A DNA stretch of 11,728 nucleotides from a virus (IMGVR_UViG_2565956624_000004:1-11728), one strand, 5' to 3'. Numbered from the stretch's first letter, positions 2,803 to 11,728 are shown. Program-made: numbers and translations. The notes: generated by a model not told the origin, from the sequence alone.

Positions 2803-2806
2803 CAGC

Positions 2807-2883
2807 GTGATTGCGATCACATAAATATACATTTTGTGTTGTGATCGCGTATCCGTTTTGTAAACCGAAATCAAAAGGTTTAC
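2807..2883. promoter_or_regulatory. putative operator/promoter region: inverted 9-mers GCGATCACA (2813-2821) and TGTGATCGC (2840-2848) flanking an AT-rich spacer, plus hairpin GTAAACC-N10-GGTTTAC (2860-2883)
   Basis: Read directly from the 99-bp intergenic gap between the stop at 2802 and ATG 2902. Both 9-mers contain GATC. No convincing -35/-10 pair could be fixed by eye. Confidence 0.25.
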
Positions 2884-2901
2884 GGCACGGAGGAAAACAA
2901 G

Positions 2902-3120
2902 ATGGCCCGCGAATACATGCTTTATTGCGTTGAGGGTGGCGTAGGCCATGATGCCTACGTCGCCGGGAAAGGCTATCCAGCCGATGAAGTGCTTTCTAAT
3001 ATGCACTTCCGGGAAAATGAAAGCCGGGTGTCTGTGTGGAAACGGTGCATTGATGGTATTGAGGTTGTAAGTATCGAACGGTATTTAGGCACGTTTGATT
3101 ACGGTGTTATTGAGGCTTAA
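2902..3120 (+). CDS. hypothetical protein (72 aa)
   Basis: ORF with GGAGGAAAA SD upstream; first gene after the intergenic gap; no domain recognised. Confidence 0.5.
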   Translation: MAREYMLYCVEGGVGHDAYVAGKGYPADEVLSNMHFRENESRVSVWKRCIDGIEVVSIERYLGTFDYGVIEA

Positions 3121-3413: not shown

Positions 3414-3606
3414 ACATTACATGGAATGGAAAATTCCAGAAGCAGCAACAAAGGCAGCGCCAGGAAATTATTCTGGCGTTTATTTTTATATGGATGGCAA
3501 ATGGTATTTCGGCAGCAGGCCGGATCACTATTATCAGGAAATATGCAAGCCTCACGTATGGGATATTAAAGAGCGCGTGAAAGGCGGGGTAATTGAGGAC
3601 GTTTAA
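3403..3606 (+). CDS. hypothetical protein (67 aa)
   Basis: ORF overlapping the upstream gene by 11 nt; Tyr/Trp-rich; no domain recognised. Confidence 0.45.
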   Translation: MKFKHYMEWKIPEAATKAAPGNYSGVYFYMDGKWYFGSRPDHYYQEICKPHVWDIKERVKGGVIEDV

Positions 3607-4091: not shown

Positions 4092-4631
4092 ATGAAAAGT
4101 GATTACGGCGGCAGCCATACGCCGAAAGAAATAAAAGACTTATGGCAAACGCCAAAACCCGTTTTTAGAGGAATGGATCGCGAGTTCGAATTTGTCGCAG
4201 ATGTGGCGGCAAACAGGGAAAACGCGCTCGTTCCTCGGTATATAACTGAAGAAATGGACGCGCTTACTTATCCGTGGGGAGCGGTGGCAATGCCTGGCGA
4301 ATATGTATGGATGAATCCACCATATTCAAACCCAGGTCCATTCGTTGATAAAGCAGCGCTCGAACATCAACGAAATCACATCGGTTGCGTAATGTTATTG
4401 CCCGCTGACGTTTCTGTTAGCTGGTTTATGAACGGCGTTGAGACGGCAAATGAGTGCCGATTAATCACGCGCGGGCGGCTGGCGTTTATCAATGCTGCGA
4501 CTGGTAAGCCAGTAAGCGGAAACAATAAAGGGAGCTTGTTTTTGATCTGGCATCCACGGTGCAGACATGAATGTATTTTCACGCAGATAACACGTAAAGA
4601 GCTATATGCAAGAGGTGCAGATAATGACTAA
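4092..4631 (+). CDS. phage-type DNA N6-adenine methyltransferase (Dam-like, NPPY motif)
   Basis: Translation has N-terminal WQTPKPVF and the catalytic motif IV NPPY (WMNPPYSN). This pattern and the ~180 aa size match the small phage Dam family (T1 Dam-like) as I recall it. Confidence 0.75.
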   Translation: MKSDYGGSHTPKEIKDLWQTPKPVFRGMDREFEFVADVAANRENALVPRYITEEMDALTYPWGAVAMPGEYVWMNPPYSNPGPFVDKAALEHQRNHIGCVMLLPADVSVSWFMNGVETANECRLITRGRLAFINAATGKPVSGNNKGSLFLIWHPRCRHECIFTQITRKELYARGADND

Positions 4632-5109: not shown

Positions 5110-5593
5110 CAGGTTACTGGCCTGCGTTTATGTCGCCGTTTTCGTGATCATCAACCTTATTGTTAACCATTGCGGCCCGTGGGTAATTCCGATCACCACG
5201 GTAGCCGCAGTGTGTGTCAATATGATGATCCGCGACTTTCTGTTATATGACGGCGGCCTGAAATGGTCGGCTACAACGTGCGCAGCCGCTGGCGCAATCA
5301 CGGTGCTGATAAACTACGATGCCGGAATGGTGGCGGTCGCGTCATTCGTTGCGGTTGTTTCCGGTGCGCTTATATCTGGCGGCGTTTACCGGGTTTTACC
5401 TGGTGATTTCGATTCCAAACGCTGGCCTGCAAATATAGCTTCAGCCATTGGAGATGCGTTAATTTTTCCCACGCTATCGTTTATGGCATTTATGCCGGAA
5501 ATATCAGCTATGCAATTCATCTCAAAAATGGCAGCGGTAACGGTGATCACTATCATCATGCGCCGCTATTTTACGTTTGAGGGCAGAAAATGA
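5090..5593 (+). CDS. integral membrane protein, possibly VUT/YhhQ-family (queuosine-precursor-transporter-like)
   Basis: ATG 5090 (track ORF starts at TTG 5060). Several hydrophobic helices. The segment IASAIGDALIFPTLSFMAF resembles the conserved C-terminal segment of YhhQ/DUF165 proteins (TASTLFGNVSDTLAFFFIAF) as I recall it. The family assignment is tentative. Confidence 0.45.
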   Translation: MKKVTIDRLLACVYVAVFVIINLIVNHCGPWVIPITTVAAVCVNMMIRDFLLYDGGLKWSATTCAAAGAITVLINYDAGMVAVASFVAVVSGALISGGVYRVLPGDFDSKRWPANIASAIGDALIFPTLSFMAFMPEISAMQFISKMAAVTVITIIMRRYFTFEGRK

Positions 5594-6354
5594 GTGGGCT
5601 TAAAAATTGGGTGGTGTGGTCGCTGTACGACGGCAGCGGGTACGCCGTTAAAGATTGGGCTGACGCTGGCTATAAGTGTTATTGCTTCAACTATGACGGC
5701 GCTAACCACGGCGACTATGAAGGCGTAAAAATCATTCATCCGAATATTGAATACGTTAACGTATGGATTGACAGCCATTTCCTGGTGATGTTCTCCCCTG
5801 ATTTGTCTGTTTATCCAGATCCTGACATTATTCTGGCCTTCCCGCCATGCGACCATCTAGCCGTGTCCGGCGCTCGTTGGTTTGCCAGCAAGCGTGAAAA
5901 AGATCCTGACTTCCAGGTGAAGGCGGCATATAACGCAAAACTGGTAGAAACGCTGGCTGACATGTATCACGTCCCGTGGATGGTGGAAAATCCGGTTGGC
6001 GCACTGTCAACGTTATGGCGTAAGCCGGATTTTATCTTCAACCCGTGCGCTTACGGTGGCTACCTGCCTGAAGATGACAAACATCCTGCCTTCCCGGAAT
6101 ACATCGCCGACCGCGACGCATACACGAAGAAAACTTGTATCTGGTGCGGGAATGGATTTAATCAGCCGCTATTCCTGCCTGTGCCAATGCCTGATGAATG
6201 GGAAGACAGTAAGCAGCACGCTAAGTTAGGAGGAAAGTCGAAACGCACTAAGATGATCCGCTCACTAACGCCGCGTGGCTTTGCCCGTGCTGTATTCCTG
6301 GCTAACGACCGGGCCATCAATCGTACTACGCTCAACCGCGTTTTACCGGACTGA
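5590..6354 (+). CDS. compact DNA (cytosine-5)-methyltransferase-like protein
   Basis: Motifs in canonical C5-MTase order: motif I-like SLYDGSGYA, motif IV FPPCDHLAVSGA (Pro-Cys dipeptide, but PCD instead of PCQ), motif VI MVENPVGAL (ENV-like), motif IX-like RSLTPRGFARAVFL (RxLTPRExARLQGF pattern). At 254 aa it is short for the family. Confidence 0.6.
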   Translation: MSGLKNWVVWSLYDGSGYAVKDWADAGYKCYCFNYDGANHGDYEGVKIIHPNIEYVNVWIDSHFLVMFSPDLSVYPDPDIILAFPPCDHLAVSGARWFASKREKDPDFQVKAAYNAKLVETLADMYHVPWMVENPVGALSTLWRKPDFIFNPCAYGGYLPEDDKHPAFPEYIADRDAYTKKTCIWCGNGFNQPLFLPVPMPDEWEDSKQHAKLGGKSKRTKMIRSLTPRGFARAVFLANDRAINRTTLNRVLPD

Positions 6355-6376
6355 AGTTTACAAAATGGCGTCATTG

Positions 6377-6437
6377 TGTGATACAGGTCACATAATGGCG
6401 CTTTTCGTCTTGTTTACGTGTATCCATTTTGTATACT
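6377..6437 (+). promoter_or_regulatory. putative sigma70-type promoter (-35 TTGTTT 6410-6415, 16-bp spacer, -10 TATACT 6432-6437) with an upstream CRP-like palindrome TGTGA-N6-TCACA (6377-6392)
   Basis: Hexamers and palindrome read directly from the 160-bp gap between the stop at 6354 and ATG 6514. The palindrome matches both half-sites of the CRP consensus and is centred about 60 bp upstream of the predicted start site. Confidence 0.35.
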
Positions 6438-6513
6438 TCAAGCAAACGAAATGCTCTTTAAAAATCCGGCAGCGCTGAAATGCGTAGAAATCACCTTAAA
6501 GGGAGGGAGCATT

Positions 6514-9375: not shown

Positions 9376-9580
9376 CCGCAAGCGCCTTGTAAGGGCGTAC
9401 GACAAAGCATTAAAGGCTTTTGATGATCTGCGACACAATAAACGCCAGCGCCGCAAATGGGCGCGTATGCTTGTTTATGAGTGGCATTATTCTGATGCTT
9501 TTATGGAAAGCGCACCGCTATTAACACAAGAACAAGCCGACGAAGTGGCTAACGATAACGTTTATTATATGATGTGGTGA
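9365..9580 (+). CDS. hypothetical protein, paralog A of a tandem pair
   Basis: ATG 9365 (track ORF starts at GTG 9359). MKSNRKRLVRAYDKALKAFDDL... ends ...DNVYYMMW. Clearly homologous to the next gene. Confidence 0.5.
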   Translation: MKSNRKRLVRAYDKALKAFDDLRHNKRQRRKWARMLVYEWHYSDAFMESAPLLTQEQADEVANDNVYYMMW

Positions 9581-10173: not shown

Positions 10174-10394
10174 AAATCTGGCAGGCTATTGACGTGGTTG
10201 ATAATGAATTGTCTATGTTCGCCACTAACGGGAAACGCGTTGTGATCGCTACATGGACACGTAACCATGATGATATTGCTTTTCGTCGCAAGGCTGCGGA
10301 ATGGCTTTTCTCAGATGGCGGCTACACGATGAACATCGCACAGCTTGCCAGAATGAAAGATGAAAAGCTGGTGGACAGCTACACAACTGCGTAA
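10164..10394 (+). CDS. hypothetical protein (76 aa)
   Basis: ORF overlapping the upstream gene by 10 nt; no domain recognised. Confidence 0.45.
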   Translation: MELKIWQAIDVVDNELSMFATNGKRVVIATWTRNHDDIAFRRKAAEWLFSDGGYTMNIAQLARMKDEKLVDSYTTA

Positions 10395-11586: not shown

Positions 11587-11612
11587 ATGTGATCTACCAC
11601 ACAAAGTTTACG

Positions 11613-11640
11613 AAATGGCATTGTTTAGGCAGTGCCATTT
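11613..11640. promoter_or_regulatory. inverted repeat AAATGGCA-N12-TGCCATTT in a 96-bp intergenic gap (operator, weak terminator or RNA hairpin)
   Basis: Read directly; 8-bp perfect arms with a 12-nt loop, followed by TTGTTACATATAAG, which contains -10-like hexamers. Only a short T run follows the stem, so a strong intrinsic terminator is not supported. Confidence 0.2.
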
Positions 11641-11682
11641 TGTTACATATAAGCCACGGAAAGACGAATGGGAGGTAAGAAG

Positions 11683-11728
11683 ATGAACGCTAACGCTAAG
11701 GAAGGTGCGAATAAGCGGGGAAATTCTT
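11683..11728 (+). CDS. hypothetical protein, 5' fragment (continues beyond window)
   Basis: ATG 11683 with strong SD GGGAGGT 6 nt upstream; MNANAKEGANKRGNS... open to the window end. Confidence 0.35.
   Translation, partial: MNANAKEGANKRGNS

Follow-up and report, generated by a model that had tools for sequence, protein, structure and literature searches.

A conserved intergenic control region of an mEp021-like prophage and a predicted mRNA hairpin over the Shine-Dalgarno sequence of its gp26-like gene

The 99-base gap between the gp25 and gp26 homologs of an mEp021-like E. coli prophage (positions 2803-2901) is a real, conserved control region. On balance, its most likely function is to hide the ribosome-binding site of the gp26-like gene in an mRNA hairpin, within a structured intercistronic leader. 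As a Shine-Dalgarno (SD)-masking hairpin, this control region is previously undescribed. Masking of an SD by a hairpin is in itself ordinary between two small phage genes of unknown function. The value of the finding is a correction: mRNA structure is a better reading of what appeared to be a methylation-sensitive operator.

The stretch of DNA analyzed here (the window, 11,728 nucleotides) contains the early-right operon of an mEp021-like (mEpimmI) E. coli prophage, with IS5 ends on both sides. Coliphages of the mEp021 (mEpimmI) type match 81-94% of the window length at 86.6-88.5% identity, and the prophages of E. coli GN04592 and CB7286 are 100% identical to it over 1 kb around the gap. The CI-like repressor and the N-like antiterminator Gp17 lie upstream of the start of the rightward early operon, to which the gap is internal. 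The gap is flanked on one side by the mEp021 gp25 homolog (2182-2802, + strand, 206 aa, PHROG 1515), with a TAA stop at 2800-2802, and on the other by the mEp021 gp26 homolog (2902-3120, + strand, 72 aa, PHROG 28996). Neither PHROG has a known function, and searches of five flanking proteins against Pfam and PHROGs returned only families of unknown function. A search for gp25 in genome contigs of species representatives found no relatives. The comparison set comprises 40 relatives, of which 34 are distinct (labels L0xx); the intact prophage L002 (29 kb) is the reference outside the window.

The mEpimmI phages are reported as one immunity group (PMC11893012). In the mEp021 and mEp554 annotations and in PMC11893012, the gap has no annotated or described promoter, terminator or nut site, and the 2025 mEpimmI paper makes no mention of CRP, gp25, gp26 or this gap. 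The claim that this is the first non-coding gap was mistaken, as positions 1156-1392 are left non-coding by both PGAP and the mEp021 annotation. That interval (237 nt) contains a terminator-like hairpin (1179-1201) and is the same gap as that of the annotated mEp021 TERM_2, just after gp22.

The window ends, 1-35 and 11695-11728, are IS5 termini (35 and 34 bases, 100% matches), adjoined by TTAG and CTAA. Two IS5 insertions bracket an 11.66-kb prophage piece: one in the erf gene, and the other in a small gene whose start is at 11684. At the erf position, no IS5 is present in the prophage of GN04592, which is otherwise identical.

Conservation and folding of the gap

Across the 40 relatives, nucleotide diversity is 0.155 in the gap versus 0.272 at the four-fold sites of gp25, and no indel occurs at 2803-2872. 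Three blocks of the gap are invariant in this set: 2827-2830; 2852-2861, with a single G2855A exception; and 2888-2893. Two further stretches, 2833-2837 and 2875-2883, are near-invariant. The original prediction of an intergenic control region is borne out by this conservation; its proposal that a 9-nt repeat is the operator of a dimeric regulator is not. Direct reading and a repeat search place all of the sequences it named where it had located them. These are: GCGATCACA (2813-2821) and TGTGATCGC (2840-2848), perfect complements 18 nt apart; GTGAT-N4-ATCAC (2807-2820); GTAAACC-N10-GGTTTAC (2860-2883); and a GATC in each half-site, at 2815 and 2843.

The + strand of the gap folds into two hairpins with a combined energy of -35.7 kcal/mol (z -3.67), termed HP1 upstream and HP2 over the SD. 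Rfam returned no gathering-score match in the window, and the matches around the gap are at chance level (E at least 1.9).

A small open reading frame in the gap (TTG 2811; a PHANOTATE call in mEp554) was considered and rejected. It is without an SD, frame-breaking indels occur after the SD in relatives, and inspection by eye reveals no third-position pattern at variable sites. The call itself, mEp554_33, is a 30-aa frame in the homologous gap (L003 3698-3787, equivalent to window 2811-2900) and looks spurious.

A predicted hairpin over the Shine-Dalgarno sequence

HP2 spans 2852-2891 on the + strand. Its arms, 2852-2866 and 2877-2891, form 14 bp with an internal mismatch (2852-2856 with 2887-2891, and 2858-2866 with 2877-2885), closed by a 10-nt loop at 2867-2876. 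The 3' arm takes in the CGGA of the SD; the SD itself is GGAGG (2889-2893, + strand), and CGGAGG (2888-2893) is invariant. The separate hairpin that had been placed just before the SD does exist, but it is longer than described and overlaps the SD rather than standing before it.

The assignment of HP2 draws on fold energy, on relatives and on strand asymmetry. The predicted energy is -16.4 kcal/mol (z -5.0), with none of 200 shuffles as stable, and every one of the 34 distinct relatives has HP2 in its minimum-energy fold. In the relatives, 98.3% of HP2 cells are paired on the + strand versus 74.2% on the - strand, with G.U making up 24.4% of cells and A.C 0.2%. At 7 of the 14 pairs, G.U is found in some relatives, whereas A.C is confined to one singleton. 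This asymmetry is predicted by constraint at the level of the mRNA and is not predicted by a DNA palindrome. Variants that break a pair are rare (1-3 sequences), and those that keep one are frequent (up to 19 of 34). What is observed computationally is the fold, the fact that every relative has it, and its strand specificity. In the local fold, the pairing probability is ~1.0 for C2888, G2889 and G2890 and ~0.87 for A2891, and HP2 stays folded from 25 to 45 °C.

Three relatives (L037-L039) contain a different downstream gene and keep HP2. Here, the 3' arm of HP1 is replaced by TGTCCYGCT, which is complementary to a GGCGGGA located between the new SD and the AUG. One upper-stem HP2 pair is lost in these three relatives (A.A), and a new U2857-A2886 pair in L037 and L038 offsets the loss. 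The complementary replacement, together with the retained HP2, suggests that SD masking survives the module swap.

The substitution pattern in HP2 sets a limit on how far pairing accounts for the conservation. No compensatory double (both-sides) changes are present among the relatives, and the tolerated changes are all transitions, of a purine opposite U or of a pyrimidine opposite G, the kind most readily obtained by chance. By event count, 7 changes keep a pair versus 5 that break one, where ~38% keeping is estimated under neutrality; this difference is not significant alone. The four U at 2856-2859 are never replaced by C in relatives, even though C-G would pair better. Pairing alone falls short of explaining the invariance of TCCGTTTTGT.

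From this arrangement we infer both an effect on translation and a route of unmasking. The invariant UCCGUUUUGU-containing arm would pair with the segment ending in the CGGA of the SD, so that ribosomes would not be freely loaded on read-through transcripts. Translation of the gp26-like gene may therefore be held low, or may depend on the opening or removal of the 5' arm. A mask this stable (-16 kcal/mol) would need a way to be lifted, and this could be RNase III-type processing or a transcript that starts inside the hairpin. A masked SD is favored over a promoter because it is common to all relatives, while the -10-like hexamer of the candidate promoter varies. Arguing against an SD mask as the whole explanation, a 12-nt motif that contributes to both hairpins recurs at sites without an SD partner (6421-6432, and near the putative PL and PR of L002). 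Sites of this kind suggest that the motif is read at the level of DNA.

A stable helix that holds part of the ribosome-binding site and must be unmasked is likewise found in the lambda N-leader RNase III site, the E. coli adhE 5' UTR and the alternative structures of lambda cIII. In SD-sequestering leaders, the upstream arm lies tens of nucleotides 5' of the SD and the helix is conserved across relatives, as in HP2. Unlike the lambda N leader, adhE and cIII, HP2 is a plain hairpin of 14 bp with a loop of 10 nt. In the fold-back inhibition of IS10 and IS50, read-through RNA pairs with the ribosome-binding site and is untranslatable, and the element's own transcript starts inside the hairpin. 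The gap resembles this arrangement in having a -10-like hexamer in the 5' arm of HP2 and a predicted start at ~2873 in the HP2 loop. It differs in being part of a phage operon and not of a transposase gene, and in the degenerate sequence of the candidate promoter (TAAACC).

The upstream hairpin, HP1 (2805-2850, + strand), has an energy of -17.5 kcal/mol (z -3.46), and support for it is weaker than that for HP2. Two registers are available. Register A pairs the two arms of the repeat first noted in the gap (2813-2821 with 2840-2848). Register B, used by the minimum-energy fold of HP1 in the window, is longer and G.U-rich (2805-2816 with 2839-2850, 2818-2821 with 2835-2838, and 2823-2826 with 2831-2834). 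HP1 folds in register A or B in the relatives and is absent in L037-L039. Register A has one double change from A-U to G-C (L005/L006), and register B has four pairs changed on both sides, a score reached by none of 500 shuffles. Among the minority states of HP1, the G.U type and the A.C type are about equal in number. The loop core is conserved even in relatives without HP1. The best reading of the 9-nt inverted repeat is that it is the stem of HP1 and not a protein operator.

Three further RNA-level readings were tried and rejected. An RNA thermometer, proposed for the four-U run beside the anti-SD, is inconsistent with an HP2 that still has -13.4 kcal/mol at 45 °C and an SD that is paired up to 50 °C. 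A boxB-like reading of the HP2 loop (GAAAU) is contradicted by variation of the first loop base. A long-range pairing of 2784-2794 with 2849-2859 receives no support from the changes in relatives.

Alternative readings of the gap

A tentative second reading, compatible with the SD mask, makes the gap a cassette with an internal sigma-70 promoter, activated by CRP-cAMP in the class I (lac-like) manner. The palindrome GTGAT-N4-ATCAC had been taken as part of the operator of a dimeric regulator. In line with a dimeric regulator, the palindrome fits the core of host CRP, TGTGA-N6-TCACA, at 9/10; the GCGATCACA/TGTGATCGC repeat fails as a conserved palindrome. The CRP-like box, cGTGA-TTGCGA-TCACA (2806-2821), was scored by its matches to this core. 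All 34 distinct relatives reach a score of 8/10 or better, and 5 of them have 10/10; the box is also able to form a 5-bp RNA hairpin (HP0). Downstream are a -35-like hexamer, TTGTGA (2839-2844, + strand), the TTG of which is kept in 31 of 34 relatives, including relatives without HP1, and a -10-like hexamer, TAAACC (2861-2866, + strand), which is 16 nt after TTGTGA and is without a T at -7.

The spacing of these elements is that of a class I promoter. The TTG at 2839 is 17 nt after the box and 17 nt ahead of the start of a TTTTGT (14 nt between). In lac P1, 17 nt separate the CRP box from the -35, and the center of a class I CRP site precedes the start by ~61.5 bp and the -35 hexamer by ~25.5 bp. 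With the box centered at 2813.5 and the TTG at 2839, the gap has this geometry, as do the sites at 6378 and 11589. The putative promoter would have its box centered at 2813.5, TTGTGA as -35, TAAACC as -10 and a start at ~2873 in the HP2 loop. If this were correct, the promoter's own transcripts would be without the 5' arm and have the SD free, while read-through transcripts would be masked. Consistent with this proposal, most of the SD is predicted to be unpaired in a modeled transcript from 2873.

Recurrence of the layout is one argument for a promoter. The composite pattern GTGA-N7-CACA-N17-TTG-N14-TTTTGT is found three times in the window, each time on the + strand and in an intergenic position, and is found in none of 200 shuffles. 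By hand comparison, the third of these cassettes (at 11589) has only the pattern in common with the gap; as it is otherwise unlike the gap, the shared spacing is not explained by common descent. In L002, five sites match the CRP core at 9/10 or better, of which four are in the intergenic 16%. Conservation in the sister cassettes is promoter-like: the N6 and the 5' end of the spacer vary, while no change is seen in the half-sites, the TTGT of the -35 or the -10 hexamers (TATACT, TATAAA/TATATA). The putative PL also contains TTG-N14-TTTTGT, followed by TAAACT, with its box 2 bp further off. Within the gap, the relatives that carry TAAACT mostly have box scores of 9-10.

The -10-like hexamer of the gap counts against the promoter reading. 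Among the 34 relatives, the hexamer is TAAACT in 14, TAAGCC in 11, TGAACT in 4 and TAAACC in 1 (the window). Variation falls on the two most important positions of a -10: T is present at -7 in 18 of 34, the window having C, and A is present at -11 in 29 of 34, with G in the other five. These substitutions are exactly those permitted by HP2 pairing. The TAAGCC clade, in which the half-sites are weakened, seemingly has no usable -10, yet it retains HP2, the 12-nt motif and the downstream gene. A promoter scan found no match in the gap. The apparent recurrence is also reduced by the gap and the 6378 cassette, which look paralogous, so that these two sites are not independent, and the composite pattern was defined after the sites were seen. 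A promoter in the gap, if present, is likely to be weak in the window and stronger in TAAACT phages such as mEp021. Like promoters of the lac P1 type, the gap has a TGTGA-N6-TCACA-type box (9/10) 17 nt upstream of a TTG-containing -35-like hexamer, in a layout shared by all three cassettes of the window. Unlike lac P1, the predicted promoter has a 16-nt spacer, a -10 without T at -7 and half-sites that are weakened in one clade.

Sites for other host and phage regulators were also sought by eye. Words for IHF (WATCAANNNNTTR, 2870-2882), TyrR, LexA, lambda CII and 434-type proteins are imperfect or not conserved, and were rejected; ATCAA, for instance, reads GTCGA in L024.

Processing of the leader is a more specific and unlikely reading, in which HP1 and/or HP2 would be a site for RNase III (or another nuclease) or a 3'-end stabilizer of the upstream message, with cleavage unmasking the SD. 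Analogies are the lambda N leader, the T7 early intergenic sites and E. coli adhE. The dimensions of the helices agree with this: register B of HP1 is a 20-bp irregular helix, and HP2 has 14 bp with an internal mismatch. The requirement of a -16 kcal/mol mask for unmasking is a further point in its favor. Against it, HP1 is absent in L037-L039, and RNase III processing is a sub-mechanism of the masked-SD explanation and no true alternative to it.

The 12-nt motif provides the case for a DNA-level function. Copy 1, TATMCRTTTTGT (2826-2837, + strand), is the nearly invariant apical part of HP1. Copy 2, TATCCGTTTTGT (2850-2861, + strand), makes up most of the 5' arm of HP2, with 2852-2861 invariant in 39 of 40 relatives. 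It is rather improbable that TATMCRTTTTGT is a DNA site for the CI-like Rep021, a Cro-like protein or another host factor. The related view, that two direct copies at a distance of 24 bp make the gap an accessory region for binding, used for instance to silence or loop the early operon, is equally improbable. The frequency of the motif is nonetheless well above expectation. At one mismatch or fewer, it is found 4 times in the window versus 0.37 expected and 8 times in L002 (29 kb) versus 0.71 expected, and no shuffle reaches either count. The locations are also suggestive: at the -10 of the putative PL, beside the -35 of PR (TTGACT-17-TATATT), beside the putative repressor promoter, and at 6421-6432. 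The motif is invariant across relatives in the gap and at 6421-6432. Several features count against this reading. The invariant part differs by site, such that at PL the TGTAAAC is fixed and CCATTTTG varies, and in the gap the reverse is true. The motif is not palindromic, and its letters in the third cassette belong to a terminator-like hairpin, as the 3' half and U-tract. PMC11893012 does not define the operator of Rep021. A likeness of the motif to OmpR sites (TTTACATTTTG) was set aside, the spacing being off by one.

The operator first proposed for the gap is now very improbable. In that model, GCGATCACA-N18-TGTGATCGC binds a dimeric, probably phage-encoded, regulator, and Dam methylation of the two GATCs modulates binding. 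Some observations agree with it. The repeat is perfect in the window, the phage does encode the Dam-like enzyme that was claimed (gene at 4092-4631), and GATC is not avoided in the window, being somewhat over-represented (52 versus 34 expected from dinucleotide shuffles). As evidence for an operator, the 9-nt repeat is weak, since 1.6% of gap shuffles contain one (p ~0.016). Its half-site centers are ~27 bp apart, which is unusual for one dimer and counts against the model. The window contains 3 perfect 9-nt inverted repeats (loops of 3-40 nt) versus 2.2 in shuffles. The other two, TTCGTTGAT at 4341-4374 and AAAATCCGG at 5987-6033, are both inside coding regions.

Comparison with relatives is more damaging to the operator. 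The repeat is perfect (9/9) in 11 of 34 distinct relatives, despite the shared immunity group reported for these phages (PMC11893012), and in three relatives the right arm is wholly replaced while the rest of the gap is retained. The left GATC is kept in 29 of 34, the right in 22 and both in 19. The right GATC is changed to GATT, GGTC, AATT or GAAC, or is lost with the replaced arm (CCCG, CCTG). This leaves Dam-sensitive regulation unsupported. A search for other copies of the half-site, suggested as a check of the operator, found GCGATCACA at one mismatch or fewer 6 times versus 2.65 expected, a count that 6 of 200 shuffles reach; two of the six are the repeat itself, and the other 4 are no excess. 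None was seen in the two immunity-region stretches that were read. The GATCs in the gap are accounted for as part of the CRP-type words TGTGATC and GATCACA. Two GATCs in a regulatory-gap repeat, in an element with a Dam-like enzyme, bring to mind pap (GATC/Lrp), agn43 (OxyR), IS10 pIN and Mu mom; in contrast to these systems, the GATCs of the gap are not conserved and are explained by the CRP-type words.

A role of the gap as intrinsic terminator or attenuator within the early operon, with read-through provided by the N-like Gp17 system, is highly improbable: the stable HP1 upstream of a UUUU run (2856-2859) and the terminator-like hairpins in the sister cassettes are in its favor, but the U run begins 6 nt past the HP1 stem with CCG between, nothing U-rich follows HP2, a terminator scan found none in the gap, and neither the mEp021 nor the mEp554 annotation places one there. 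Likewise, the gap contains no boxA-like YGCTCTTTAAMAA. The sole exact match in the window is at 6452-6464 (the boxA of nutR2), and one 2-mismatch match is outside the gap on the - strand (3563-3575). The nut sites and terminators t1-t5 of mEp021 are those of Valencia-Toxqui et al. 2023, as summarized in PMC11893012. They belong to the same operon in the same phage group, and the cassette at 6378-6437 includes the predicted t4 and precedes nutR2. Unlike them, the gap is without boxA, boxB or terminator, and it is not among the elements described in that summary.

Related cassettes in the operon and the immunity region

The sister cassette at 6378-6437 (+ strand) contains TGTGA-TACAGG-TCACA, TTGTTT, ATCCATTTTG and TATACT. 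By hand count, it is the same as the gap at ~69% of 55 ungapped positions. Its box, a perfect CRP core, sits in the apex of the predicted terminator t4 hairpin, and the boxA of nutR2 is downstream (6452-6464). Across 6367-6464, the U-tract of the predicted t4 is not conserved in relatives and is followed by an invariant TTGT-N-ATCCRTTTTG-TATACT. Judged from its sequence, this region may act as a promoter from which transcription resumes just ahead of the third nut site.

The third cassette, 11589-11649 (+ strand), contains TGTGA-TCTACC-ACACA, TTGTTT and a terminator-like hairpin ending in GCCATTTTGT. An SD (GGGAGG) and an ATG at 11684 are downstream, and the gene that begins there is cut by IS5 at 11695. 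In the surrounding interval (11588-11686), the hairpin of the box is followed by a strong terminator-like hairpin (GAAATGGCA...TGCCATTTTGT) and then by the SD and ATG. Versions of this cassette are found between different gene pairs in different phages, and it looks portable. In IMG/VR, the composite pattern is almost exclusive to mEp-like contigs, with 1-3 per returned DNA stretch.

These sites raise the somewhat speculative possibility that mEpimmI phages carry a compact cassette family, in which a CRP site of lac geometry, a promoter and an RNA hairpin are superimposed. The wider point is the repeated layout of box, -35 and TTTTGT, found in the gap, upstream of nutR2 and at 11589, and perhaps also at PL. 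If such a family exists, one cassette would restart transcription just upstream of nutR2, giving a reason for the third nut site. The gp26-like gene would be translated only from cassette-initiated transcripts, with an IS10-type fold-back inhibition of the remainder. With one form of the box also upstream of the putative PL start and over the -35 of the putative repressor promoter, the cAMP state of the host would be connected to a phage group that is reported as not UV-inducible. If these are real CRP promoters, early expression would be tied to host carbon status, and possibly so would the lysis-lysogeny switch of these gut-prevalent, UV-non-inducible coliphages.

Other elements with similar words are present in the immunity region of L002. 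At 9476-9541, the TTTTGT motif is present twice in a 27-nt imperfect palindrome. A conserved box in this interval, TGTGA-CTTGCA-TCAAA, is one of the five L002 sites that match the CRP core at 9/10 or better; it overlaps the putative leaderless repressor promoter (TTGCAT-17-TAGGGT), over its -35, and is ~61-63 bp upstream of the putative PL start (TTGAYC-16-TAAACT). At 10325-10366, the PR (TTGACT-17-TATATT) is invariant in 33 distinct relatives. An invariant AAAAAGTATACAAAATG abuts the -35 of this promoter; part of it, when reverse-complemented, is a copy of the motif, making it a candidate operator. Within the window, GTAATTCCGATCAC (5183-5196), inside a membrane-protein ORF, equals the variant of the gap box found in other phages (e.g., L023), probably by chance.
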